A program made the translations under genes and the position numbers. From contig OZ244561.1 in assembly GCA_965217585.1 (NCBI GenBank), forward strand, positions 7,104,001 through 7,168,000: a DNA stretch of 64,000 bases, given 5' to 3'. A model generated the notes under the pieces. The model was not told where the DNA came from. It saw nothing but the letters and a program-made list of their open reading frames with translations, and ran no database searches. The DNA comes from Candidatus Latescibacterota bacterium. GTDB lineage: Bacteria; Latescibacterota; UBA2968; UBA8231. This document shows, piece by piece, positions 5,528 through 33,282 of the stretch. Positions within the stretch are counted from its first letter, which is position 1. The number at the start of each line of letters is the position of its first letter.

Positions 5528-6529
5528 TCATAGCGCAAAGGGTGGAATGCGGAGAAACGCGCCCCCTTGCCGGGCGGACTCTTGGGCCAGCAGGCAGGCT
5601 TGGGCGGTGGCGAACACCGAGCGGGTGGGGATGAAGAGGTCGGTGCCGCGTTCAATGGCGTCGATCAGGTTGGCGACTAACGCGCCGCTTTGGTCTTCAG
5701 GCAAATCGGGCGCGTACGGGCCGCGCTCGTTGGTGGCGATGAGCAGATGGGCTTCGGCATAGGCGCGCAAGTGCGCCGAGCCGGCCGTGCCCATGACGAT
5801 GAAACGCGTGTCGCCAAACGAGGGTGCGGATTGGGGCGTAAGCCAGTCGGCGGTGAGGGTCGCCAGCGCGCCGTCGGATAGCTCGAAGGAAGCCTGCACG
5901 TGGTCGTCTAAGCGCGGCTCTGCCGTGAACCGCTTGCAGGTGGTGAGGGCGTGGACGCCGACGCATTCGGCACCGGTGAGCCAGCGGATTTGATCGACGC
6001 CGTGGCAAGCTAGGTCGTGGAACGCGCCCGTGTACTGATTGGGGTCGAAATACCAAGCCGGAGCAGTGGCGCGGCGGATCTTGTGCGGGTGGGTGGAGAT
6101 GAGGCTGGCGATGGTCCCGAGCGCACCGTCGAGAATGGCTTGGCGCAGGGTGATAAACGGCGGATAGCTGCGCGAGGTGAACCACATGGACACGTGGATT
6201 GGGCTGGCGGCCACGGCGCAGCGCATGCGCTCCCAGTCGTCGAGCGTGCGGCACAGAGGTTTGTCGAGGAGCAGGTGAATGCCAGCGCGGGCGCAGGTTT
6301 CCACGAGCGCGGTTTTCTCGTGGTGGATCAAGCCTTCGAGGATTAGCTCGGGTCGGGCGCGGGCGATCATGTCGTCCAAGGTGGCAAAGCGGGGGATGGA
6401 TGCATAGCGCACGCAGAGCGCGTCGTCGTCTTCAACCAAGCCGACGATTTGGCCGTTTGATGCCTGCAAAGCGGATTGGATCATGCCGCTGATGTGGCCG
6501 TAGTGGACGCCCATGATGCCGATGCGCAT
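5528..6529 (-). CDS. Gfo/Idh/MocA family oxidoreductase
   Basis: Start MRIGIMGVHYGH; 'HLLLDKPL' and 'GAFHDLACHGVDQIRWL' motifs. Confidence 0.85.
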   Translation of the reverse strand: MRIGIMGVHYGHISGMIQSALQASNGQIVGLVEDDDALCVRYASIPRFATLDDMIARARPELILEGLIHHEKTALVETCARAGIHLLLDKPLCRTLDDWERMRCAVAASPIHVSMWFTSRSYPPFITLRQAILDGALGTIASLISTHPHKIRRATAPAWYFDPNQYTGAFHDLACHGVDQIRWLTGAECVGVHALTTCKRFTAEPRLDDHVQASFELSDGALATLTADWLTPQSAPSFGDTRFIVMGTAGSAHLRAYAEAHLLIATNERGPYAPDLPEDQSGALVANLIDAIERGTDLFIPTRSVFATAQACLLAQESARQGGAFLRIPPFAL

Positions 6530-14337: not shown

Positions 14338-16716
14338 CTACTCCTCTTCTACTACTTCCTCTTCTACTGCTTCCCCTGCCACTACTTCTATCTCAAGGAT
14401 TTTAAAACCTTCGAGCAATAAATCGACGTCTTGCTGCGTGGAAATAGGCGCAGGGGGGGCAGGAGGAGGACCGGGAGGAAAGGCTCCAGGTGGCGGAAGT
14501 TCATCAAAGCCGCCTTCGGGTTCGCCTTCACCTTCTTCACCTTCACCACCTTCAGGTTCACCCTCACCTTCTCCTTCACCTTCACCACCTTCAGGTTCAC
14601 CCTCACCTTCTCCTTCACCTTCACCACCTTCAGGTTCACCCTCACCTTCTCCTTCACCTTCACCACCTTCAGGTTCACCCTCACCTTCTCCTTCACCTTC
14701 ACCACCTTCAGGTTCGCCTTCTCCATCTACAAACTCAGGCGGTGGCTCGGGAAATGCCGGTGGCGGGGGTGGCGGGGGTGGCGCGACAAACGTCAAGCGA
14801 GCTTTTAAGAGGACATTCTCGTCGGGTTTATTCAGTCGTGCAAAAACATCATCGAGCGTTTCCTCACCCCCAAAAAACGATGGCGGTGGGCCGAACAACA
14901 GCGCATCGTCCCCTAATAGTGCGGCGGACCCCACTTCGAGTTGGTAAAAGCCAGGGAAGAGCGTGTCCGGCACGCTGAGGGCTAGCTCGACTTCCCGGTC
15001 CTTGGTCCGTCCCACGCGCAGTGAAGAGGTAATATTCAGCGTACTCCCAAGACTGACGACCGTGTCGGCAGTAACCTTCGTCAGGGTGGCAAAACGAGTC
15101 TCAGGAATCATTTCGACATGCACCTCGGCCTCGCGCACATATACGGCGTAATCGTACCTCGTCATAAGCTCCGAAAGTGCGAACGACACGTCGCCATAGG
15201 CATTAAAAATTGAGGCAAAGAGCCGTCCGCCTGGTGAGGAGTAGAGCCGGGAACGAGTGAGTGTTGAATCGGAGCCGGCAAAAGCGATATCCGTCGTAAC
15301 GCGGATACTGTGATCAGGATCGTTGTCGACCCGGTTGGCCAAGGGATAAAAGAATGCATTGGAGACGAGATCGAGCGAGGTATATGGGCTGATACCGACG
15401 GCCATCCTGTGCGTAAGTTCGAGTTCGCTCCCTGAAGGAAACGTATAGACGCTCTTAACAGGTACTAATTCTGGTTCCTGATCGAGCACGCCGCGCACCG
15501 CGGGCAAACGGTCTTCGGTCAGAGTGCCCCGCACCGTTGGATTCAGCGTTGCAAACTTGAACGGAGCGGACAAATTGGAAATTTCGCCGAGCACCTTTGC
15601 TTCGATTATGGGAAGCTCTACCGGACCGCTACTATTCATTGGATGCCCAAACCCATAGACCCGGTTGCCATCGACGTACGATATGGTTCCCATCGCACCC
15701 AGCGTAAGCTCACCGAGCAGCAACCCAACGGTCAGTGGCCTGCCGGCCTCAAAGCTGGCCTGACGCTCTTGGGTCAGACCAGCGGCGCTGGCTCCGCTCA
15801 GGATAGACGAACGCCCTTCAGGCAGCGAACGCACCCCATTGAGTCCCGTGCTGAGCAAGGGGGTATCCAAGGGAGTAATGCCGTTTCCTTCCCACGTGGC
15901 CGTGGGTTTGGCCGCAGGCATCATTCCCCGCGTGCCGATGACCCATTCTATGGGCGTGGCAAAAAAGTAGTACGGCGGGTTGTCTTGGGCAGAAAATCCA
16001 TAAGCAATGGCACCCCAGGTGCCCTGCTCCGTAAAAATGGGCGAACCGCTCATCCCCTGAGCAATGCCCCCAAGCTGTATCAGAACAGGGTCCGAGGCTT
16101 CGACCATATAGACCGGCATCGGTGCCAAAAAATCATCAACCACCTGGACGAACGTCATTTCGAGATCGGCGAGCTCGCCGTTAGCAAATTCAGTGCGCAG
16201 GAATACGGGCGTGCCCGGGGGCATGGCACGAACCTCGTCAGCCGAGACTATGGGCGAAAGATCCCAAGGCTTTAACTCCCCGGTGGGCCGCAAAATCGCT
16301 TCTGGAGCCAGGATGGAACCGGCAGCCGCCAGCATGGAATCAGCGGCGGCCAGCATGGTATTCGCGGCGGCTAGCATGGAAGCCGCATCGGCCGCTATCG
16401 TCGAATCTGCGTCTGCGGCGACCATTGCATTGGCGGCGGCGATCATCGAATTCGCGGTAGCCATCATGTCATTAGCAGCGGCCAGCATGGAATCGGCATC
16501 GGCGGCTATTGTTGAATCCGCGTCCGCAGCGATCATTATATTCGCGGTGGTCAGCATGGAATCGGCGGTGGCCAGCATGGTATTGGCGGCGACCAGCATG
16601 GAATCCGCGGTGGCGATCATCGAATCGACGGCAGCCGCCGTTGGTGCAGGATCGTCGTCGTCCCCACAACTCCATAGACCAACGGCGAGTGCGAGTAGTG
16701 CTAAACGAATCGGCAT
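14338..16716 (-). CDS. Lipoprotein with SpoIVB/S55 peptidase domain and two low-complexity repeat regions
   Basis: Lipobox-like LWSC; 'GGIAQGMSGSPI...GAIAYG', 'GTISYVDGNRVYGFGHP'; N-terminal AADSML repeats and C-terminal GEPEGGEGEGEGE repeats. Confidence 0.8.
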   Translation of the reverse strand: MPIRLALLALAVGLWSCGDDDDPAPTAAAVDSMIATADSMLVAANTMLATADSMLTTANIMIAADADSTIAADADSMLAAANDMMATANSMIAAANAMVAADADSTIAADAASMLAAANTMLAAADSMLAAAGSILAPEAILRPTGELKPWDLSPIVSADEVRAMPPGTPVFLRTEFANGELADLEMTFVQVVDDFLAPMPVYMVEASDPVLIQLGGIAQGMSGSPIFTEQGTWGAIAYGFSAQDNPPYYFFATPIEWVIGTRGMMPAAKPTATWEGNGITPLDTPLLSTGLNGVRSLPEGRSSILSGASAAGLTQERQASFEAGRPLTVGLLLGELTLGAMGTISYVDGNRVYGFGHPMNSSGPVELPIIEAKVLGEISNLSAPFKFATLNPTVRGTLTEDRLPAVRGVLDQEPELVPVKSVYTFPSGSELELTHRMAVGISPYTSLDLVSNAFFYPLANRVDNDPDHSIRVTTDIAFAGSDSTLTRSRLYSSPGGRLFASIFNAYGDVSFALSELMTRYDYAVYVREAEVHVEMIPETRFATLTKVTADTVVSLGSTLNITSSLRVGRTKDREVELALSVPDTLFPGFYQLEVGSAALLGDDALLFGPPPSFFGGEETLDDVFARLNKPDENVLLKARLTFVAPPPPPPPPAFPEPPPEFVDGEGEPEGGEGEGEGEGEPEGGEGEGEGEGEPEGGEGEGEGEGEPEGGEGEGEGEGEPEGGEGEEGEGEPEGGFDELPPPGAFPPGPPPAPPAPISTQQDVDLLLEGFKILEIEVVAGEAVEEEVVEEE
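14512..14723. repeat. 39-bp coding tandem repeat (4 perfect copies plus degenerate flanks)
   Basis: Unit accttcaggttcaccctcaccttctccttcaccttcacc, encoding a 13-aa Gly/Glu/Pro repeat on the minus strand. Confidence 0.9.
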
Positions 16717-23790: not shown

Positions 23791-25338
23791 ATGAGCAAAC
23801 GCAGATTACCCATCGGCATTCAAACCTTCCGCGAGATCCGCGAGGAAGACTGCTACTACGTCGATAAGACCGGCTACATCTGCCGGCTGCTCGACGAGGG
23901 CAAGCACTACTTTCTGTCGCGTCCGCGCCGCTTTGGCAAAAGCCTGTTGTTGGACACGCTCAAGGAGGTGTTCGAGGGCAACAAATCGCTGTTTGAGGGG
24001 TTGGACATCCACGACCACTGGGATTGGTCACGGCGGTATCCGGTTGTGCGGCTGGACTTCAGCGGCGGCAGTTACTACGAGCGGGGTGGTCTGCACGAAG
24101 ACGCGATGGCGCAACTACAAGATTTGGCAGAAGAGGCCGGGGTTACGACCCGTTACGAGAGCGCCTCGGCGTGCTTTCGCCATCTGCTTGGGGCACTGAG
24201 TCGGCAGGCTGGGCAGCGCGTTGTAGTGCTGGTAGATGAGTATGACAAGCCGATTTTGGATGCGCTGGAGGTGCCGGACATCGCCCGCGCTAACCGCGAC
24301 TTTCTGCGCGACCTGTACGCGATGATCAAATCCAGCGATGCACACATCCGCTTCGCTTTCATTACGGGGGTGAGCAAGTTTTCCAAGGTCAGTTTGTTTT
24401 CTGGACTCAACAACCTCAAGGACATCACCCTCGACCCGCGCTACTCCGCTATCTGCGGCTACACCGAGGCAGACCTCGACGCGGTGTTCGCACCGGAGTT
24501 GCCCGGCCTCGATAGGGACGAGATCCGCGACTGGTACAACGGCTACCGTTGGCTCGGTGACGAGAAGGTGTACAATCCCTTCGACATCCTGCTGCTCTTC
24601 GACAGCCGCAAGTTCGGTGCCTATTGGTTCGAGACGGGTACACCGACGTTCTTGGTCGAAACCCTGTGCAAGCGCCACGTCAGCTCCTTGGAGTTGGGCA
24701 GCATGGAGGGCAGCAGCGACCTGTTGTCCACCTTCGACGTGGACGACATAGCGACCGAGGCCCTGCTGTTCCAGACCGGCTACCTCACCATCCAAGACGA
24801 GGAAGACCTCGGCGGTGAGCCCGTCTATCGGCTAGGCTATCCCAACCGCGAGGTACGGCAGAGCCTGAACCGCAGCCTGCTGCGCTACTTGGTGCAGGAT
24901 GCCACGCGGCAGATGGCCAATAGCGTCCGGCTCTACCGGCTATTAGAGGCCAACGACTTCGCCGGGCTGGAGACGCTATTCCACGCCTTTTTCGCCAGCA
25001 TTCCCTATGAGTGGTACACCAACAACGACATCGCCCGGTACGAAGGCTATTACGCCAGCGTGTTCTACTCCTATTTCGCCGGGCTAGGGCTGGACATCAA
25101 GGTAGAGGACAGCAGTAGCCACGGACGATTGGACATGGCGGTTCTATTCAACGGCAACGTCTATCTATTTGAGTTCAAGGTGGTCGAGTTGGCGTCCGGG
25201 GGCGCGGCGATGGGGCAATTGAAGGAGCGGCGCTACGCGGATAAGTATCGCGGTTTGGGGCAGCCGATATACCTGATTGGCGTGGAGTTTAGTAAGGATA
25301 CGCGCAATGTGGCGGCGTTTGCGGTGGAGCGGGCGTGA
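23791..25338 (+). CDS. AAA-ATPase-like + PD-(D/E)XK (DUF1703/PDDEXK_9) nuclease
   Basis: 'LPIGIQTF...YVDKT', 'SRPRRFGKS', 'LVDEYDKP', 'YWFETGTP', 'GRLDMA...FEFK', 'YADKY'. Confidence 0.92.
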   Translation: MSKRRLPIGIQTFREIREEDCYYVDKTGYICRLLDEGKHYFLSRPRRFGKSLLLDTLKEVFEGNKSLFEGLDIHDHWDWSRRYPVVRLDFSGGSYYERGGLHEDAMAQLQDLAEEAGVTTRYESASACFRHLLGALSRQAGQRVVVLVDEYDKPILDALEVPDIARANRDFLRDLYAMIKSSDAHIRFAFITGVSKFSKVSLFSGLNNLKDITLDPRYSAICGYTEADLDAVFAPELPGLDRDEIRDWYNGYRWLGDEKVYNPFDILLLFDSRKFGAYWFETGTPTFLVETLCKRHVSSLELGSMEGSSDLLSTFDVDDIATEALLFQTGYLTIQDEEDLGGEPVYRLGYPNREVRQSLNRSLLRYLVQDATRQMANSVRLYRLLEANDFAGLETLFHAFFASIPYEWYTNNDIARYEGYYASVFYSYFAGLGLDIKVEDSSSHGRLDMAVLFNGNVYLFEFKVVELASGGAAMGQLKERRYADKYRGLGQPIYLIGVEFSKDTRNVAAFAVERA

Positions 25339-25428: not shown

Positions 25429-25947
25429 ATGAGAAGTCACAGAATTGCCGCAGCAGTAGTAGTTGCAGGAATCGCCATCGGCATTAGCTCAATCGCCGTC
25501 GCCCACGAGGACCACGACAAGGCTTCCGCACCCACGGCGTTCACCGCCATGACGCCGATTCTGAACGTCGCAAGCGTGGAGGCGAGCATCGAGCACTACA
25601 CCTCGGTTCTTGGTTTCAACAAGGACTGGGACTGGCCCGCCGAGGCCGAGGACAAGACCTTTGCCTCCCTATCCAATGGCGAGGTGCATATCTTTCTCGC
25701 CGAGAATTCGCAGGGTGCCCGACCGGTGTGGCTCTACTACAACGTCGGGGATGTTGACAAGCTGCACGAGGGGTACGCGGCGGCGGGGGCGAACATAAAG
25801 AAGGTGCCTGTTGACGAGCCTTGGGGGGCGCGGGAGATGCTGGTTGAGGACTTAGATGGGCATGTTTTGCGGATTGGCGGGCCGCCTAGCAGGGGAGAGG
25901 GTGGTGAGAGTGAGGAAGGGGGCGATGAGACGAAAGAAGATGGCTAA
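25429..25947 (+). CDS. VOC/glyoxalase family protein with signal peptide
   Basis: GGAGG RBS; 'PILNVASVEASIEHYTSVLGF', 'DVDKLH', 'EPWGAREMLVEDLDGHVLRIG'. Confidence 0.85.
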   Translation: MRSHRIAAAVVVAGIAIGISSIAVAHEDHDKASAPTAFTAMTPILNVASVEASIEHYTSVLGFNKDWDWPAEAEDKTFASLSNGEVHIFLAENSQGARPVWLYYNVGDVDKLHEGYAAAGANIKKVPVDEPWGAREMLVEDLDGHVLRIGGPPSRGEGGESEEGGDETKEDG

Positions 25948-26143
25948 AGTCAACGACACAGAGCAGCCTTCAGAGAGTGAGAACACTCGAACTATCCCTT
26001 CGGCGGTCAAACTCAAGCAGCTAATAGGCACCTCGCCCGCTTGCCGAATGCTGACGCCGGAAGAAATCGAGTTGCTGAGGAAAAGCAAGCAGGAAATGGA
26101 TCAAGTCGTGGGCGAGGTCCTTGCGGGGAAACGAGATACATAG
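25940..26143 (+). CDS. Small protein of an 'MLTPxEI' family, stand-alone paralog of the ORF hidden in csb2
   Basis: MAKVND...GTSPACRMLTPEEIELLRKSKQEM...; 30/47 identities with 29212-29421 over the C-terminal part. Overlaps the VOC stop; alternative start 25925. Confidence 0.6.
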   Translation: MAKVNDTEQPSESENTRTIPSAVKLKQLIGTSPACRMLTPEEIELLRKSKQEMDQVVGEVLAGKRDT

Positions 26144-26300
26144 GATTTGACCAAGCCGATAAACCTGATTGGCGTGGAGTGCAGCAAGGATGGGAGCGAA
26201 GCGGGGGCAGGCAGGCTCTGAGACGCCAATGCCGATGGAGTGGGCGACGCCAATGCTGCGGTAGCCGATGACTCCAGATCGGGTACATAGTAGGTTGCCT

Positions 26301-26424
26301 TATTCAATGAGGCCGGGGCAACGAGGCCCCGGAAATACGCACATACTTTGTGCGAGAAAATCACAACTCCCATACTTCAATGAGGCCCGACGATAGGGGA
26401 CGCTATTGCGCTGTCGGGGAAAAT
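26301..26424 (-). ncRNA. CRISPR-like mini-array (pseudo-repeat / 37-nt spacer / pseudo-repeat), putative regulatory crRNA
   Basis: 26301-26336 matches the array repeat at 27/36 with the stem kept. 26374-26424 keeps the 3' GGCCTCATTGAAG(T) and a longer hairpin. Spacer 26337-26373. Confidence 0.8.
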
Positions 26425-26439
26425 TTCATAGATTTATGG

Positions 26440-26459
26440 TTCATGGGAGTAGTAATATT
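26440..26459 (+). promoter_or_regulatory. Predicted target of the mini-array spacer (TTC PAM + partial protospacer) in an AT-rich promoter region
   Basis: TTC-ATGGGAGTAGTAATATT versus spacer ATGGGAGTTGTGATTTT: 14/17, first 8 perfect. Confidence 0.65.
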
Positions 26460-26484
26460 AAACATTTTAGGAGGATAGAGTCCA

Positions 26485-26688
26485 ATGAGAAATAAATATT
26501 GCCTCACACATTTAGCTTTTCAGTTTGAGCAGGTTTCGGTCGAGATCGTTAATGACGAGCCATCCTACGGGACTAGATATGAGCAACGATCTAGGCCCTC
26601 CAACCCGGAACAGACTACTGTACCAAAACTCAAGCCCTTGTTGCTCCCCGCCGGGGACAGCGCGAGGAATACTAAAGATGACCTCTAA
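26485..26688 (+). CDS. Small hypothetical ORF (67 aa) ahead of csb1; candidate CRISPR-repressed toxin or leader peptide
   Basis: AGGAGG at 26469-26474; no recognisable motif. Confidence 0.35.
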   Translation: MRNKYCLTHLAFQFEQVSVEIVNDEPSYGTRYEQRSRPSNPEQTTVPKLKPLLLPAGDSARNTKDDL

Positions 26689-26760
26689 CCAAACGAAACG
26701 TCGCGACTAATGTCAATCACCGCTGCGGCAAGACGCAGCCAAAACGAACGAGGATAGACT

Positions 26761-27969
26761 ATGATAATTGATCTACAGACCTTGCGGGACGCGGTTGGCG
26801 GAACGGCGGCAGCATTTCGGTGTGTGACCGACTATCAGCCGACGGGAGGCCGTGGTGATAAGGTTTTTCCGCCAACCTATGAAGGCGGCAAATACGCCAC
26901 AGAGGAGCGCGTTGATCCCGCTACTGGCGAGGTTCGGCAGTGCATTCTCTTGGATTCAGTGCAGTCGCAGGCCAACCGGATGGAGTTGGCATTGCTGGAG
27001 GCACACTGCGCCGGAACGGTACAGCTTCCTCTGCTAGTAACGCGCTTCGATCAGGAGAAACTGCTCAAGAAGTTCTCGGTGACCAGCTTGGAGGCACCTC
27101 ATCGCATCGCGGATGCGTTGTTCCGCGACAGCCTGCTTGAAGGCACGATTTTCCGCAAATCAGAGAAAGGTCGAATACTCGACACTGCGGAGGTGAGGAA
27201 CGCCACCGGCCTATTTGGCTTGTGTCCGACCGCACTGATATTTGGGCTGTGGGACTCGACTGGACCGCGTGGAGGCTTGGGGTGCAAGTTTCAGCGGGCG
27301 GTAGTGTCGGAGATTATGGGATATGATGCGGTGGCAGGGGAGAAAACAGGAAGCCGCATCGATCCCGCTCAGATCATGCTTGGAGCGGGTCCGTTATACG
27401 AGCGCAAGTCTTCAGATGATGATGTACCTGATTGGACCTTGGATGAAAAAGCGGGATCTAAAAAGTTGGGGAAGGACAAGAAAGGAAGGCCATCGGAAGC
27501 CAATCACGGAAACGTCACGCCAACTATTACGGAAGGCGGATTCACCATCTCCAGTGCCCGGCAAACGACAACCTTGTCTCTGGCCGTCTTGCGCCGTCTC
27601 CGTTTTCCCCACAACGGTGCCGCTGATTCTAACCACGATACCGACCTCGCGGCACGCACCGCACTGGCCGCCTTGGGCCTCACCGCCGGTATTCTAGCGA
27701 GGATCGATACGGACCTTCGCTCTCGTTGCCAGCTTTTCGCTGAACAAGAACCTGTGTGGGAACTGCTCGACCGCCCAGGAGAACCTCCACGGAAATTTGA
27801 ACTTAGTCCCGAAGATGCGCTGAAACTGTTGGCAGCGGCCATTACCGAGGCGAAAAACGCGGGACTACCGTGGGAGGACGAAATTGAGTTGACCCCATCG
27901 CCCGAACTTGTCGAACTGGTTCGGCGTAGCCAGGAATTGGCCAGCACATCGGGAGAAGGGGAAGACTGA
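26761..27969 (+). CDS. csb1: Type I-G Cas7 (Csb1)
   Basis: 'GDKVFPPTY', 'LLDSVQSQANRME', 'LEAPHRIADA', 'PTALIFGLWDS', 'PSEANHGNV', 'LRSRC'. Confidence 0.93.
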   Translation: MIIDLQTLRDAVGGTAAAFRCVTDYQPTGGRGDKVFPPTYEGGKYATEERVDPATGEVRQCILLDSVQSQANRMELALLEAHCAGTVQLPLLVTRFDQEKLLKKFSVTSLEAPHRIADALFRDSLLEGTIFRKSEKGRILDTAEVRNATGLFGLCPTALIFGLWDSTGPRGGLGCKFQRAVVSEIMGYDAVAGEKTGSRIDPAQIMLGAGPLYERKSSDDDVPDWTLDEKAGSKKLGKDKKGRPSEANHGNVTPTITEGGFTISSARQTTTLSLAVLRRLRFPHNGAADSNHDTDLAARTALAALGLTAGILARIDTDLRSRCQLFAEQEPVWELLDRPGEPPRKFELSPEDALKLLAAAITEAKNAGLPWEDEIELTPSPELVELVRRSQELASTSGEGED

Positions 27970-30329
27970 TGTTCTCTCTTGGCATCCATTACCTGAATGG
28001 ATGGTCCATGGCAGCGGCGGACGGGGCGCGAAAAGAGCAGGCCGAATGGCCACCGCATCCCGATCGGGTGTTCATGGCGTTGGCGGCAGCTTGGTTCGAG
28101 ACCGGCGAAGATCCCGCCGAAGGCGAGGCCCTGCGCTGGCTTGAAGCCTTGCCACCCCCTGCGATTGCCGCCTCGGATGCGGACAGTCGCGTCACTGTTG
28201 TTAGCTATGTGCCCGTCAACGACGCGAACCTTAGTAGCAAGGTGCCTACTAGCGGAGACTTGAACAAACTAAAGAATGCCGGACTGGCCCAGCTTCCAGA
28301 GCATAGATCGCGCCAACCCCGTGGTTTCCCAGTTGCCATCCCCCATGATCCGACGGTACATCTAATTTGGCCGGATGCCGAATTGGGCGTACATCGCGTC
28401 GCCTTAGAACGGCTGGCCGCCAAAGTTACTCATGTGGGTCATTCGGCCTCCTTTGTGCAAATGTGGCTGGAAGCCAAGCCGCCGCCGCCCGCGTGGATTC
28501 CGACGTTTGGCGTCGCCCGTCAGCGACTGCGCGTAGCGAGCCCTGGGCGCTTGAAGGTGTTGGAAACGCGCATGAACCGCGCCGCATGGATCGCCTACCA
28601 CGATCTTCGCAGCGAGATTGAGCAAGCTGAGGCGGACCTCAAGGCGATGAAGCAACCGCCAAGGGTGCCTTGGAAGGCATTCGCGGATGTGGTGCTACTG
28701 GCCAGTGAATCTGCGGTCAAGCAGCATCCAGATTATCCCGGTGCCAAGACGGGTGACATCGTGGTCGCGACGAAACTAGTCAACAGCTTGGTTGACGAAG
28801 CGGGGATCGCCGCGATGCGGGAACTGATCGCCGAGGTTAGTGAAAGCGGCGATCCTGTACTAGTCAGCGCACATGCCTACGAACGCCAAAGCGTCAATGC
28901 CATTCCGATTGCCTTGGCGAAGTTGCTGAGCGAGCGACTCGGGATCCAGTTCGAGACTAATATCGTGCAGACCAATGTCGTTTCCCACACGGGTGCGGAC
29001 GGTTATGGCCGCCTTGCCCGCCAAGCTCGCTTTGAAGGCGGCGTTGATAAGGGCCGCGAATACGTGATGGTTGATGATTTCGTCGGTCAGGGCGGTACGT
29101 TGGCGAATCTGCGTGGCTGGATCCAAAAACAGGGCGGCAAGGTCGTCGGTGCCGTTGTGCTGACCGGCAAGCCGTACTCCGCTAAATTAAATCCTTCACA
29201 GGAGCAACTGCATGAACTCCGACAAAAACACGGATCAGACTTCGAGAGATGGTGGAAGGAACACTTCGGACACCCCTTCTCTTGCCTCACTCAATCAGAA
29301 GCTCGGTACCTCGCCCGCTCCCCGGATGTTGACACCATCCGAAATCGTCTTGCTGCGGCAAAGCAAGAAGGAAATGGCCCAAGTTGCACACGAAGTCCTC
29401 GCGAGCAAAGACAATACATAAAGGAAATGAAAGCGCGTTTGGAAGACTGTTTCCCCGATGGGAAGAAACCCGTGAGTCTGCCTCCGGTGCCGGGCCGTTG
29501 GCAGGGATACGATAGACCCCCGAAAGACAAGGCCCCCGAAGCTCCCGGCTCGGTTTTCGACCCTCAGCTCATTGTCCTCGGCATCAAAGGCAAGCGCGTG
29601 TCCTTGCCGGCGACGCTCAAGCTCACGGCGGCCCTGCGCAGCTTATTGATGAAAGAGTGTCCCGAACAACCGCCGCCCGAGTGGTTCAGTGGACATCGCT
29701 TGGACGGTACGCCCACCGCCGAACCGCATCTGGCTTTGACTCCGCTCCCCTTCGTCGGCGCAGAACATGCAGATGGTCGCATTATGGGTTTGGCTCTGGT
29801 TCTGCCGACGGGTTTGGATCAGCAGGAGGAGGCCGGGCATTGTCTCGAACCGTTCCTGCGCGACATAGCTACCGGATTGCCGCGTGAACATCCTTTGTTC
29901 GATGGCCAGTGGTTCGAGTGCGCTATTGAACTGGAAACCCGCGAACGCCCGCCGAAAAACCTTGACCCGGATACTTGGACACGGGAATCGCGCATTTGGG
30001 CGAGTGTGACCCCGGTGGTCCTGAACCGACATTTCGATGGTAAGGACAAGTGGGAGCGGGCGGCTGAGAGCGTGAAAGATGCATGTCTGCACATTGGTCT
30101 GCCGCGCCCACGCGAGGTGTTGCTGCACCCGGTTTCGCTGGTTGAGGGCGTCCCCCATGCGAGGGAGTATCCGCAACTGATGCGTAAGAACGGTGGGCGA
30201 CGGAGCCATAATCACGCGGTGATCGTCTTTGATGAGCCGGTGCGCGGGCCGGTGCTCGTGGGGGCAGGTCGCTTCCGGGGATATGGGTTGTGCCGCCCGA
30301 TGGATGGAAAAGGTGAAGATCGTGACTGA
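27969..30329 (+). CDS. csb2: Type I-G Csb2 (Cas5/Cas6-like) with an inserted phosphoribosyltransferase domain
   Basis: 'AEWPPHPDRVFMALAAA', 'YVPVND', 'THVGHSASFV', 'FSGH', 'WASVTPVVL', 'GPVLVGAGRFRGYGLC'; insert at about aa 230-470 with 'YVMVDDFVGQGGTL'. Confidence 0.9.
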   Translation: MFSLGIHYLNGWSMAAADGARKEQAEWPPHPDRVFMALAAAWFETGEDPAEGEALRWLEALPPPAIAASDADSRVTVVSYVPVNDANLSSKVPTSGDLNKLKNAGLAQLPEHRSRQPRGFPVAIPHDPTVHLIWPDAELGVHRVALERLAAKVTHVGHSASFVQMWLEAKPPPPAWIPTFGVARQRLRVASPGRLKVLETRMNRAAWIAYHDLRSEIEQAEADLKAMKQPPRVPWKAFADVVLLASESAVKQHPDYPGAKTGDIVVATKLVNSLVDEAGIAAMRELIAEVSESGDPVLVSAHAYERQSVNAIPIALAKLLSERLGIQFETNIVQTNVVSHTGADGYGRLARQARFEGGVDKGREYVMVDDFVGQGGTLANLRGWIQKQGGKVVGAVVLTGKPYSAKLNPSQEQLHELRQKHGSDFERWWKEHFGHPFSCLTQSEARYLARSPDVDTIRNRLAAAKQEGNGPSCTRSPREQRQYIKEMKARLEDCFPDGKKPVSLPPVPGRWQGYDRPPKDKAPEAPGSVFDPQLIVLGIKGKRVSLPATLKLTAALRSLLMKECPEQPPPEWFSGHRLDGTPTAEPHLALTPLPFVGAEHADGRIMGLALVLPTGLDQQEEAGHCLEPFLRDIATGLPREHPLFDGQWFECAIELETRERPPKNLDPDTWTRESRIWASVTPVVLNRHFDGKDKWERAAESVKDACLHIGLPRPREVLLHPVSLVEGVPHAREYPQLMRKNGGRRSHNHAVIVFDEPVRGPVLVGAGRFRGYGLCRPMDGKGEDRD
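29212..29421 (+). CDS. Overlapping (+1 frame) small ORF inside csb2, 'MLTPxEI' family
   Basis: AGGAG 7 nt before the ATG; homologous to 25940-26143 with the same stop position. Confidence 0.55.
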   Translation: MNSDKNTDQTSRDGGRNTSDTPSLASLNQKLGTSPAPRMLTPSEIVLLRQSKKEMAQVAHEVLASKDNT

Positions 30330-33282
30330 GTTGAACGACGCTACGGACTTCGCTGAGTTTTTCAACGAGTTGTGGGGCCATAAGCCTTTTGCTTGGCAGC
30401 AGGAATTGGCGGATAGAGTGCTGAAGCGGGCAGAGGCTCCTTGGCCCGAAGCCATTGCCTTGCCGACAGCAGCAGGCAAGACCGCGTCCTTGGATATCGC
30501 CGTGTTCGCGTTGGCAGCCCAAGCATCTCGGTTGGCTCGGAAGCAAGCCATCACTGCACCGCGTCGCATCTTCTTCGTGGTGGACCGGCGCGTGATAGTG
30601 GACCAAGCATATGAGCGGGCACGCCTGTTAGCAGACCATCTTGAGAAAGCGCAGGACGGCGTTATCAAGCGCGTTGCGGACAACCTGCGCCAGATTGCTC
30701 ACGGCGAGGCGGACGGGTTTGAGAAGGCACGGCCGTTGGCCGCTTATGTATTGCGCGGTGGCATGTATCGGTCGGAGGCTTGGATGAATAGCCCGCTTCA
30801 ACCCATGGTGGTGGCCTCGACCGTCGATCAAATCGGCTCTCGCTTGTTATTTCGCGGCTATGGACGCGGCCATCGCACGTGGCCGATAGCTGCGGGATTG
30901 GTCGCCAACGACAGCCTAATCCTACTCGACGAGGCGCAGTGCGCCCAGCCGTTCTTACAAACCCTGCAAGCGGTGCGGCGCTATCAAAAATGGGGGCATA
31001 CGCCGCTTGAACGTCCCTTTTACCCGGTGGTGATGTCGGCGACCCCGCCGTCGGGGGTGGACCTATTCGAGGACCTATCCGCCGAAAGCCGCAATCCTGA
31101 CCATACGCTAGGTAAGCGCCAACTAGCACAAAAGCCCGCCATCCTGAAGACAGTCGGAAAAGCCAAGGGAAAGCGGGCTACGAGTGTGCTGGCTAGGGCT
31201 TTGGCCGATGCTGCATCGGAGCTGGTCAACGACGAATGCCGCGCTATCGTGGTGTTCGTCAACCGCGTTGCCACGGCGAGGGAGACTTATTGCTTGCTCC
31301 ACAGTCGGGAAGACATTGACGCTGTACTGCTAACAGGTCGGATGCGCCCCGTTGACAAAGAGGTCGTCGTACAACGCTTAAAACCCCTCCGGTCGAGCCA
31401 ATCCGCAGAACGCACTTTGGAAAAGCCGATGATCGTCGTGGCTACCCAAACTCTGGAAGTGGGGGCCGATCTCGACTTTGACGGCTTGGTGACCGAGTGC
31501 GCGAGTCTCGATGCCTTGCGCCAGCGCTTTGGTCGATTGAATCGCATGGGGCGGAAGATTGATGCGCGAGCAGAGATTCTCGTACGCGGCGACCAAACAG
31601 GCGACAAAGGGGACGACCCCGTGTACGGCGAGGCCCTTACTAAGACTTGGGCTTGGCTCAACGAGTGCCAAGACGAAAACGGCGAGGTCGATTTCGGGAT
31701 TGCCCATCTTGAAGAGAAATTGCCAAAGGGCGATTCCCTGACTGCACTCAACGCACCTTCCGTCAATGCCCCGGTGATGCTTCCTGCCCATGTTGATTGC
31801 TGGGCACAGACAGCACCGCAACCACAACCTTCTCCTGATGTGGCTCCGTTTCTGCATGGTCCTCGTGAAGGCGCGGCGGATGTGCAGGTCTGCTGGCGTG
31901 CTGATGTGGATTTGACCCGTGAAAAGGAGACGTTGGAACTTCTGTCCTTGTGCCCGCCGAGCAGCAGTGAGACGCTCCCGGTGCCGGTCGGTGTGTTCAA
32001 GCGTTGGTTAGCCGGAGAGGACGCCGCAGACGACAGTGCCGATGTAGAAGGAATCGGTGCAGAGGATGGCATTAGCGGGAACAGTTCGTCCAAGGTGGAA
32101 CGTCAGATAATCCGATGGCGAGGGGTGGCCGAAACGGAATCCGAACACATCACAGCGGACCCTAGGACGATTCGTCCCGGCGATGTTATTGTGATCCCAG
32201 CTAACCATCCGGGGCTAGCGCGTCAACTCGGAGACCTGCCGCCGGACGCCGACTTGGATGTGGGAGATCGCGCCTATCGGCTCGCCCGCGCTAAGCCCAT
32301 CCTTCGCTTGCACCCGAAGTTAGTGGACGATTGGCCGGATTCCGTTACGGCTAAAGGTCCCGCAGACGAACTGCTAAAGGATCTGGAGCAGAAGTACGAC
32401 GACGATCCGCATGAGGTCGGCAATGCCTTGAGGGAGCTTCTACAGGAACTGGCCGCCTCTGAATCGCTCCCAGAACACTGGTCTTGGTTGCCGAAAGCGG
32501 CAAAAGAATTGAGCAAGGAATACTCCGGCTCCAAGCTGGCCCGTGCCTATCGCGCTGTCGGCGGCAAAAGTATCGTCCTCGTCGGGCGGCAGCGCATACC
32601 GGAACTCACCCTCGAAGCCGACCACTTCAGCGATGAGGACGACGCTAGCGCGTCTGGGATCGGGCGTCCCGTCAAATTGTTAAGTCACCTGCCCGGCGTC
32701 GAAGCGTTTGCCCGCCGTCATGCCTCGGGCTGCGGCTTGCCAGCGGACTTGGTCGAAGTTCTCGCCTGCGCTGGCCTGTTGCATGACTTGGGCAAGGCCG
32801 ATCCTCGATTTCAGTCGTTATTGCGTGGTGGCACTCGCTGGTTGGGCGGGGAACTTCTCGCCAAGTCTGCCGAAATGCCGAGAAGTCCGGCAGCCTATGA
32901 GAAGGCTCGGACCGCTTCCGGCTATCCGAAAGGTGGGCGGCACGAACTGCTTTCGGTGCGCTTGGCAGAAAGCGCGTCGATTCTTTTGCCGGAAAGGGAC
33001 GATCTGCGAGACTTGGTTCTGCATTTGATTGCCAGCCATCACGGCCACGGTCGGCCGTTCGCGCCGGTGGTGTGTGACGAGCAGGGCGAGGATGTAGATT
33101 TCGAGTTGCGCGGCCAACGGACGCACTGGTCTGGTCCCACCGGCCTTGAGCGTCTCGACTCCGGCGTCGCGGATCGCTATTGGCGGCTGGTGCGGCGCTA
33201 TGGCTGGTGGGGTTTGGCTTGGCTGGAATCTCTGCTGCGACTTGCTGATTGGCGGCAGAGCGAACAGGAGGAGACACAATGA
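30322..33282 (+). CDS. cas3: Type I-G Cas3 (helicase with C-terminal HD nuclease)
   Basis: 'LPTAAGKT', 'VVDRRVIVDQ', 'LLDEAQ', 'MSAT', 'QRFGRLNR', then HD 'LLHDLGKAD', 'RHELLS', 'SHHGHGRP', 'LRLAD'. GTG start overlapping the csb2 stop (ATG 30304 is an alternative). Confidence 0.93.
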   Translation: MTELNDATDFAEFFNELWGHKPFAWQQELADRVLKRAEAPWPEAIALPTAAGKTASLDIAVFALAAQASRLARKQAITAPRRIFFVVDRRVIVDQAYERARLLADHLEKAQDGVIKRVADNLRQIAHGEADGFEKARPLAAYVLRGGMYRSEAWMNSPLQPMVVASTVDQIGSRLLFRGYGRGHRTWPIAAGLVANDSLILLDEAQCAQPFLQTLQAVRRYQKWGHTPLERPFYPVVMSATPPSGVDLFEDLSAESRNPDHTLGKRQLAQKPAILKTVGKAKGKRATSVLARALADAASELVNDECRAIVVFVNRVATARETYCLLHSREDIDAVLLTGRMRPVDKEVVVQRLKPLRSSQSAERTLEKPMIVVATQTLEVGADLDFDGLVTECASLDALRQRFGRLNRMGRKIDARAEILVRGDQTGDKGDDPVYGEALTKTWAWLNECQDENGEVDFGIAHLEEKLPKGDSLTALNAPSVNAPVMLPAHVDCWAQTAPQPQPSPDVAPFLHGPREGAADVQVCWRADVDLTREKETLELLSLCPPSSSETLPVPVGVFKRWLAGEDAADDSADVEGIGAEDGISGNSSSKVERQIIRWRGVAETESEHITADPRTIRPGDVIVIPANHPGLARQLGDLPPDADLDVGDRAYRLARAKPILRLHPKLVDDWPDSVTAKGPADELLKDLEQKYDDDPHEVGNALRELLQELAASESLPEHWSWLPKAAKELSKEYSGSKLARAYRAVGGKSIVLVGRQRIPELTLEADHFSDEDDASASGIGRPVKLLSHLPGVEAFARRHASGCGLPADLVEVLACAGLLHDLGKADPRFQSLLRGGTRWLGGELLAKSAEMPRSPAAYEKARTASGYPKGGRHELLSVRLAESASILLPERDDLRDLVLHLIASHHGHGRPFAPVVCDEQGEDVDFELRGQRTHWSGPTGLERLDSGVADRYWRLVRRYGWWGLAWLESLLRLADWRQSEQEETQ

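Follow-up and report, generated by a model that had tools for sequence, protein, structure and literature searches.

Results

A small gene lies out of frame within csb2

The window, a 64,000-nucleotide (nt) stretch of Candidatus Latescibacterota bacterium (NCBI GenBank assembly GCA_965217585.1, contig OZ244561.1, positions 7,104,001 to 7,168,000 of the forward strand), holds a type I-G CRISPR-Cas operon in which csb2 carries an inserted phosphoribosyltransferase (PRTase) domain. Our subject is a small open reading frame (ORF), copy A, that is written in the +1 frame of csb2 over the end of this insert, together with a free-standing relative, copy B, situated between a glyoxalase-family gene and csb1 (Table 1). 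From the comparative evidence given below, copy A is almost certainly a genuine overprinted protein-coding gene that starts from an ATG and ribosome-binding site of its own. At its end the Csb2 PRTase domain is dual-coding over ~70 codons, and the AGGAG that precedes copy A is itself read as Gln-Glu codons in the csb2 frame. An initial annotation of the window, made from the sequence letters, had proposed both small genes; the ORF coordinates and the AGGAG 7 nt upstream of copy A were found as it described them, and both ORFs are on the plus strand.

The 786-amino-acid (aa) ORF that hosts copy A is type I-G Csb2. It matches the Pfam family Cas_GSU0054 (E-value 2.7e-19) and the NCBIfam family TIGR02165, Csb2 (E 6.4e-89), and the PADLOC model Cas56g matches it in two stretches flanking the insert (E 8.1e-123); these N- and C-terminal models and the csb1-csb2-cas3 operon fit the identification. 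Within the insert, the loop that binds phosphoribosyl pyrophosphate (PRPP) reads VMVDDFVGQGGT and the fold is that of a type I PRTase. Sequence profiles recognize the PRPP loop alone, and the Pfam/NCBIfam search gave a weak Pribosyltran match at Csb2 residues 361-405. An AlphaFold2 model of the insert has a pLDDT (predicted local distance difference test) of 91.2, and its Foldseek matches comprise OPRT, ComF, APRT, XPRT, PurR and ShosT (8zvc), at E-values of 1e-4 to 1e-5.

Copies A and B are the sole copies in the 7.32-Mb genome, as searches in both the small frame and the PRTase frame indicate. The genome search gave a small-frame match at E 1.3e-13 with 58% identity, and a PRTase-frame match at E 1.1e-8 with 44% identity and one TGA. 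On recounting, 30 of 47 C-terminal residues are identical between A and B in the small frame, the figure originally reported; identity in the PRTase frame is lower, 23/48 in our count against 22/44 in the initial annotation, and copy B does hold the TGA at 25978-25980. At the DNA level the two share 100/144 nt across the aligned C-terminal part and terminate at the aligned position. Outside the ORF, similarity is at chance, with 16/60 nt after the stop and 13/60 before the ATG. The small protein matched nothing in Pfam, NCBIfam or PADLOC, and in a protein atlas it found just unnamed 'hypothetical protein' clusters of 64-71 aa (scores 0.84-0.92).

Table 1. Position of the small gene copies and of surrounding features in the window
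Feature	Position	Strand	Basis or remark
Small overlapping gene, copy A	29212-29421	+	69 aa, +1 frame of csb2; ORF listing
AGGAG, Shine-Dalgarno-like	29200-29204	+	7 nt before copy A ATG
csb2 (type I-G Cas5/Cas6-like subunit) with PRTase insert	27969-30329	+	786 aa; Pfam, NCBIfam, PADLOC
PRTase domain inserted in Csb2	28611-29468	+	~residues 215-500; limits set from stand-alone homologs
Small gene, copy B, free-standing	25940-26143	+	67 aa from ATG; former PRTase frame dead
Glyoxalase/bleomycin-resistance family gene	25429-25947	+	Pfam; syntenic upstream neighbor of B-type copies in related genomes
Degenerate CRISPR repeat 26300-26335, 40-nt spacer-like stretch, truncated repeat from 26376	26300-26388	+	between copy B and csb1
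csb1 (Cas7-like, Cas_GSU0053), first type I-G operon gene	26761-27969	+	Pfam E 9.9e-51
cas3 (helicase and C-terminal HD domain), downstream of csb2	30229-33282	+	Pfam

The small frame is conserved as a gene

Relatives of copy A were gathered in two sets. For the genome set, one genome per species was scanned (241 relatives) and the best 80 of 241 loci were kept; these loci, which by record titles span many phyla, were picked by small-frame similarity, so that counts taken from them are biased. The small frame is open in all 82 of the 82 hits and, when the window's two copies are included, begins with ATG in 80 of 84 copies. Forty of these 84 sit inside full-length Csb2-PRTase fusions, 13 occupy the 3' end of PRTase genes that stand alone and encode ~250-290 aa, 20 (copy B and 19 others) keep the small ORF intact where the PRTase frame is broken, and 11 are intermediate. 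The 39 full-length orthologous fusions are 63-87% identical to that of the window. A database search also returned 120 small proteins of 56-96 aa homologous to copy A, already called as genes in many assemblies.

Because the first set was selected by small-frame similarity, a second, unbiased one was built from metagenome contigs, queried with an alignment that covers the PRTase N-part alone and ends before the overlap (Csb2 residues 225-410). Eighty loci, 49-70% identical, were obtained; 7 have less than 200 nt downstream, which leaves 73 testable. Of these 73, 71 encode a small-protein homolog (E <= 1e-3), in the +1 frame in 69 cases; stops across this frame in most PRTase homologs, the outcome that the initial annotation had named as fatal to its proposal, are not what we found. 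The ORFs run from 53 to 137 aa (median 62), and their start varies between two positions 6 codons apart. Locus L156 has a different C-terminus, and L165 has an open +1 ORF that is similar in the N-part alone. A frameshift in L093 and L149 makes the small frame continuous with the PRTase N-part, and 5 further loci combine a PRTase frame that stops early with an intact small ORF. A Shine-Dalgarno-like 4-mer precedes 71/84 copies of the genome set and 27/69 of the metagenome set, against a background of 0.10.

A further signal comes from 60 distinct metagenome sequences with both frames intact, which are related to one another, so that no joint probability can be quoted for them. Stops in the +1 frame number 0.28 per 100 codons in the overlap, compared with 4.39 in the N-part and 6.14 in the +2 frame. 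When synonymous codons are shuffled so as to keep the PRTase protein, the +1 frame stays open in 12.8% of trials, for an expectation of 7.7/60 and an observation of 60/60. Synonymous differences in the PRTase frame drop from 0.60-0.76 to 0.23-0.47 from the first codon of the small ORF onward, with sites outside the overlap near saturation; the drop begins at the start of the small ORF and ends at its stop. The same pattern is seen in the codon alignment of the 40 Csb2 fusions (three of them read with X at one internal stop), where the csb2 frame shows an overall pairwise synonymous difference of 0.47, which sinks to 0.14-0.17 over residues 431-480 and is back to 0.50 by residues 481-500, the small ORF covering residues 415-484. 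Selection on the small-protein frame, proposed earlier from the two window copies, is upheld by this stop depletion and synonymous suppression and by the substitution rates of the copy B lineage (below).

The two frames divide the shared DNA between them. In the first half of the overlap the PRTase frame dominates (LR.KHG, WW, FG, LTQSEARYL), and where the PRTase has its invariant WW, the same codons read in the +1 frame yield the invariant GG of the small protein. In the second half the small frame dominates (PRML..SEI.LLRQSK). The free-standing B lineage, with a ratio of nonsynonymous to synonymous substitution rates (dN/dS) of 0.74 at codons 2-30 (N-part) and 0.29 at codons 31-64 (core and helix), is consistent with this sharing: constraint is weak in the N-part and strong in the core and helix.

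Besides the biased choice of the genome set, two results add little to the case for a gene. Codon-position diversity in the 20 small-only copies is a weak signal (0.29 at position 3, 0.20 and 0.21 at positions 1 and 2), because most of the divergence predates loss of the PRTase frame; dN/dS of the B lineage was used in its place. In addition, contigs of 85-95% similarity from RNA libraries of relatives extend over parts of csb2, the small ORF among them, and do not establish transcription, strand or ends, and in two metatranscriptome runs only 0.05-0.06 of sampled words were present. A several-fold peak of summed contig depth at 29188-29341 is common to all four sequencing runs; many organisms sharing this stretch would account for the peak, which fits an extreme nucleotide conservation of dual-coding DNA.

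The overlap is a trait of the PRTase family

The enzyme belongs to a large family. A full profile search returned 2,748 cluster representatives at 50% identity, 1,088 of them at E <= 1e-30, and the best 150 take four length forms: solo proteins of ~240-270 aa, proteins of ~500-620 aa with the domain C-terminal, Csb2-size fusions, and giants of 2,000-4,683 aa. On viral contigs the domain (38-57% identity) occurs in fusions of MuF and PRTase (L187, L188, L190; Phage_Mu_F) and in proteins of 2,334-2,467 aa. A +1 ORF is present in 14/14 viral-contig homologs, 11 by profile search and 3 others separately, a count from which the viral locus L193, a mere fragment of the PRTase domain, was excluded. 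Three cultured phage records with the PRTase were found, and both of the two examined, Moraxella phage Mcat8 and Burkholderia phage vB_HM795, have the ORF. Profile scores of the phage and viral ORFs are 27-80 bits; in the Mcat8 annotation just a 39-aa tail of the small gene is called. Between the MuF and PRTase parts of an 896-aa viral protein (L190:2023-4710) we noticed a weak Intein_splicing match (E 1.9e-5, below the Pfam cut-off).

A PRTase domain of enigmatic role has been described in polyvalent proteins of phages and plasmids, in the main text of Iyer et al. 2017 (PMC5512222). The window enzyme shares with it the PRTase fold and the DD motif, and its relatives show the same MuF fusions, giant multidomain proteins and solo forms, so that, judged by this main-text description, the enzyme is of the same invasive-element kind. 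The word 'overlapping' is absent from that main text, and no mention of Csb2 was noticed in it.

The embedded small gene is common to the stand-alone PRTase, the giant polyvalent protein and the Csb2 fusion, and the initial annotation's inference that the peptide travels with the enzyme holds in every architecture examined; the overlap with PRTase genes, which it had proposed to look for, is there in the stand-alone and phage forms as well. The overlap is thus a family trait older than its capture by CRISPR-Cas. Since it is present in stand-alone and phage PRTases, enzyme and peptide entered csb2 as one DNA unit, which agrees with the capture originally envisaged.

In some lineages the small protein is joined to other sequence. 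In four metagenome loci (L145:658-1062, L146:1489-1881, L153:3208-3606 and L159:1027-1437) it extends ~70 residues past the PRTase stop; the extensions are mutually similar (GQDEIDDAH...FEILQ...) and matched no Pfam family. In P0122 and P0127 (636 aa) it is fused in frame to the N-terminus of a protein with the stretch 'DVTHGFRH', which we take to resemble the DxTHG motif of CRISPR-associated CARF-type proteins. In P0133 (358 aa) it is fused to the C-terminal part of Csb2.

Copy B represents a separate, selected lineage

The ATG of copy B overlaps the stop of the glyoxalase-family gene upstream (ATGGCTAA), and its open frame permits an earlier ATG at 25856. B-type copies occur in six same-genus genomes at 60-93% identity, one of them (G011) frameshifted late in the ORF, and the former PRTase frame holds several stops in all six orthologs. 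For the small frame, six intact short copies (that of the window and five orthologs) give a dN/dS of 0.44 (15 pairs, 0.22-0.68); the corresponding values are 1.07 for the ex-PRTase frame and 0.70 for the third.

The gene order in this lineage is AAA-ATPase/PD-(D/E)XK gene, glyoxalase gene, B, cas3, and the cas3 beside B-type copies in related genomes is a variant, 28-31% identical to that of the window. Elsewhere, an intact PRTase-plus-small pair stands directly upstream of such a cas3 (L042, L064, L066, L088). No match to the PRTase N-part was found at E <= 1e-3 in five B-carrying genomes, four of them single contigs and with completeness of 87-95%, and a similar query did find the window's own copy. 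By gene order and substitution pattern, copy B is evidently an orphan of a PRTase-small-cas3 arrangement, still under selection and now located in front of a fusion-type operon. The initial annotation had it as a second copy retained beside a regulatory mini-array. Copy B does adjoin a degenerate repeat; it is, on the other hand, a separate lineage that in relatives lies upstream of the variant cas3.

Predicted structure and binding of the peptide

AlphaFold2 predicts residues 1-40 of copy A to be disordered and residues 42-67 to form a confident helix, so that the folded part is the single long helix that the initial annotation had anticipated. A ribbon-helix-helix or other antitoxin-like fold, suspected from 'RMLTPSEI.LLR', was set aside in view of this model of one helix and a disordered N-part. 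The conserved core of the small protein is PRMLTPSEI.LLRQSK, and its helix is amphipathic.

When the peptide is modeled with the PRTase domain, the interface score ipSAE is 0.89, 0.90 and 0.89 in three runs, compared with 0.00 for the best of 3 controls. This mark is reached by 58/80 solved complexes and 2/110 mismatched pairs, a rough calibration, as own alignments were used. The runs share at least 88% of contacts, and the pLDDT of the partner is at least 72. On the side of the small protein, the contacts fall on its most conserved positions (L40, E44, I45, L48 and R49). Peptide residues 33-66 (33-42 and the helix) meet residues 48-58, 86-108 and 114-125 of the PRTase segment, which by comparison with textbook PRTases are presumably the helix after the first strand, the pyrophosphate-loop region and the strand before the flexible loop. 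This modeling, a check that the initial annotation had suggested, supports predicted binding; the small protein probably binds the PRTase domain.

Genomic context

The degenerate repeat between copy B and csb1 keeps its stem arms, has a changed loop and is oriented the opposite way from the main array. Compared with the rest of the window, the spacer-like stretch (26336-26375) gave no partial match of significance (best 11 nt, E 0.37), and a repeat search of 25800-26800 returned nothing at the thresholds used.

The stretch 26761-48960 is composite. It starts with type I-G csb1, csb2 with its PRTase insert, cas3 and a 319-aa ORF without a Pfam hit, continues with a type III-like set (a 498-aa Cas10-like protein with a palm2 domain, Csm2, a RAMP protein and a 316-aa ORF) and ends with a Cas_APE2256 protein, a Cas4-Cas1 fusion and an array of ~90 repeats of ~36 nt at 41.4-48.96 kb. 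Upstream, 23791-25338 encodes a predicted AAA-ATPase and PD-(D/E)XK protein (PF09820, PF08011) that recurs at 57-87% identity beside type I-G loci and PRTase/small genes elsewhere (L008, L017-L020, L031, L032, L046, L065, L070, L071, L079). Near-identical Csb2-PRTase operons (63-87% protein identity; among L008-L087) are found, by assembly titles, in Latescibacterota, Binatia, Nitrospirales, Gammaproteobacteria, Acidobacteriota, Dehalococcoidia and Rhodothermales, and this spread across phyla suggests recent horizontal transfer of the whole type I-G locus. Tandem repeats lie far from the small genes, at 14513-14715 (period 39, 5.3 copies, 96% matches) and at 16307-16625 (imperfect, periods 21/42/111).

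Discussion

Judged by frame conservation in both sets, the small gene appears to be a real, ancient and widespread embedded gene. Two explanations would do without a separately translated protein. In one, there is no second protein at all: an RNA or DNA element freezes the synonymous sites, and composition together with conserved PRTase residues happens to leave the frame open. The host frame does force part of the conservation seen in the small protein, as in the glycines read from the tryptophan codons, and the N-part of the free-standing lineage is weakly constrained. However, shuffling leaves the frame open in only a small minority of trials, the small frame has remained open and under selection where the PRTase frame is lost, some lineages extend it past the PRTase stop, and the binding model scores stand apart from those of the controls, so we regard this explanation as close to untenable. 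The other would have the +1 frame reached by programmed ribosomal frameshifting, producing a truncated enzyme with an alternative tail. In-frame forms that join the PRTase N-part to the small protein do exist (L093, P0125, P0126), but the shift points of L093 and P0125 differ and there is therefore no common slippery site; moreover, the +1 frame of most genome-set loci opens at 5980, no more than 21 nt ahead of the ATG, both this ATG and the Shine-Dalgarno sequence are conserved, and the free-standing copies have a start of their own with no PRTase upstream. We consider frameshifting highly implausible.

What the peptide does is a separate matter, and here we tentatively favor, at somewhat less than even confidence, a cognate inhibitor or "safety catch" of the PRTase. 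The peptide would bind the PRTase encoded by the same DNA and hold the enzyme inactive until release, in the manner of an immunity protein or antitoxin. We favor this function because PRTase-fold defense effectors have been described, in part of the literature, as toxic and held by a partner (ShosTA and the type III-A3 retron), because a small partner at the 3' end resembles the gene order of toxin and immunity genes, because the partner outlives the enzyme as orphans, and because embedding ensures that the enzyme is never inherited without its partner. The unit of enzyme and putative catch is old, being found in phage MuF-PRTase, in giant polyvalent proteins and as a stand-alone two-gene module, and type I-G CRISPR-Cas has acquired it twice over, as a stand-alone pair before cas3 and as the in-frame Csb2 insert of the window.

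Several observations count against the inhibitor. The modeled interface is not enriched in conserved PRTase residues (10/44 versus 73/286, a hand count), which contradicts the expectation that it would be rich in invariant ones. The PRPP-binding DD loop (segment residues 152-163) is absent from the listed contacts. As the interface avoids this loop and shows no such enrichment, occlusion of the active site is not indicated. Searched with PADLOC, the PRTase homologs gave PRTase_III-A as the sole hit (E 0.0042, in one homolog) and no convincing defense or toxin-antitoxin model. Finally, the B lineage persists in genomes that gave no match to the PRTase query, which fits an inhibitor only with incoming PRTases or another role; because B is retained in these genomes, its role cannot be only to neutralize a PRTase of the same genome.

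A real partner that acts positively on the PRTase would explain co-inheritance and the binding model equally well, whether as an obligate structural or activating subunit or as an adaptor to Cas3 and Cascade or to the phage head and injection machinery. An interface that avoids the PRPP loop and lacks catalytic-site enrichment suits such a partner, as does retention of the peptide even with the enzyme built into Csb2 or into polyvalent proteins of 2,000-2,500 aa, and the ~70-aa C-terminal extensions seen in four loci are adaptor-like. An obligate subunit should, however, vanish with its enzyme, and orphans persist under selection without detectable PRTase; the small ORF also outlives a broken PRTase (the 5 unbiased loci) more often than the reverse. 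We therefore hold a positive partner to be unlikely, if worth serious consideration. Less likely still is a main role in CRISPR-Cas itself, through regulation of the cas3 operon or binding of a Cas protein, with the PRTase link merely historical. B-type copies stand directly before the variant cas3 in the five same-genus genomes without a PRTase match, PRTase-plus-small pairs precede cas3 in the four loci named above, and the in-frame fusions to a 636-aa protein bear a DxTHG-like motif. Yet peptide and PRTase also occur together in phage MuF and polyvalent proteins and at metagenome loci whose scanned neighbors are unrelated to CRISPR, and the prediction is of one helix, with no DNA-binding fold.

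The arrangement has partial parallels among known systems. In the Rz/Rz1 pair of phage lambda, the smaller gene lies entirely within the larger one on the same strand and is read in its +1 frame, the products form a complex and the unit is conserved across phages. The same-strand +1 embedding and the conserved unit are alike here, where the complex is predicted; unlike the Rz/Rz1 spanins of envelope lysis, the host frame here is an enzyme domain, found also in cellular CRISPR-Cas genes, and the two are unrelated in sequence and fold. In Bacillus subtilis, comS encodes a regulatory peptide out of frame within the enzyme gene srfA-B, likewise a short peptide inside a large enzyme gene, but ComS acts on the unrelated MecA/ClpCP rather than on its host protein and is known from a narrow lineage only. 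CreTA is an RNA toxin-antitoxin pair in a type I cas operon that is repressed by Cascade; as there, a potentially harmful module and its antidote may share a type I cas operon, the antidote role here being putative, but CreTA is RNA-based, whereas each part here is protein, and one of them forms a domain within a Cascade subunit. Copy B and the 19 other copies that outlive a decayed enzyme gene also resemble the orphan immunity and antitoxin genes of polymorphic toxin, bacteriocin and toxin-antitoxin systems, from which they differ in that toxicity of the PRTase and protection by the peptide are putative.

A functional precedent is ShosTA. Passages of PMC11961720 and PMC12961424 describe ShosT as a PRTase-domain toxin with the antitoxin ShosA, and part of the literature describes a PRTase-fold toxic effector for the type III-A3 retron as well. 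The window enzyme shares the PRTase fold (Foldseek match to ShosT, 8zvc, E 9.3e-5), the role of toxic effector being that described for ShosT in those passages. Neither the window PRTase nor the small protein gave a PADLOC hit to ShosT or ShosA, so the likeness is one of fold only. ShosA is a separate, DprA-like protein; the partner here is instead a 60-70-aa peptide encoded inside the enzyme gene.

Literature on Csb2 with a PRTase, on PRTase accessories of type I-G/I-U systems and on out-of-frame antitoxin genes yielded no earlier account of the embedded gene. As far as these searches reach, the embedded gene and the PRTase insert of Csb2 are new.

A bolder scenario, which we regard as improbable, can also be drawn. 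The peptide could be the off-switch of a PRTase weapon delivered in phage and plasmid polyvalent proteins, and type I-G systems could have domesticated both, tethering them to Cascade through Csb2 as a second enzymatic effector released on target recognition. Orphans such as copy B, retained in front of cas operons where the enzyme is absent, might then be host decoys that disarm phage-injected PRTases, an anti-counter-defense gene born by overprinting.

Well-supported out-of-frame overlapping genes conserved across phyla are rare outside viruses. The one described here bears the classical evolutionary signatures and is found in phages, in plasmid-like polyvalent proteins and in a CRISPR-Cas subunit. 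Standard annotation overlooks it or calls it too short; if most of the 2,748 representatives carry the hidden gene, thousands of genomes would be without its annotation. It also draws attention to an enzymatic insert, not reported before, in Csb2 of the type I-G Cascade, and the enigmatic PRTase domain of polyvalent proteins gains a candidate partner that is directly testable. The dual coding itself would be a natural example of an enzyme and its partner locked into one piece of DNA.

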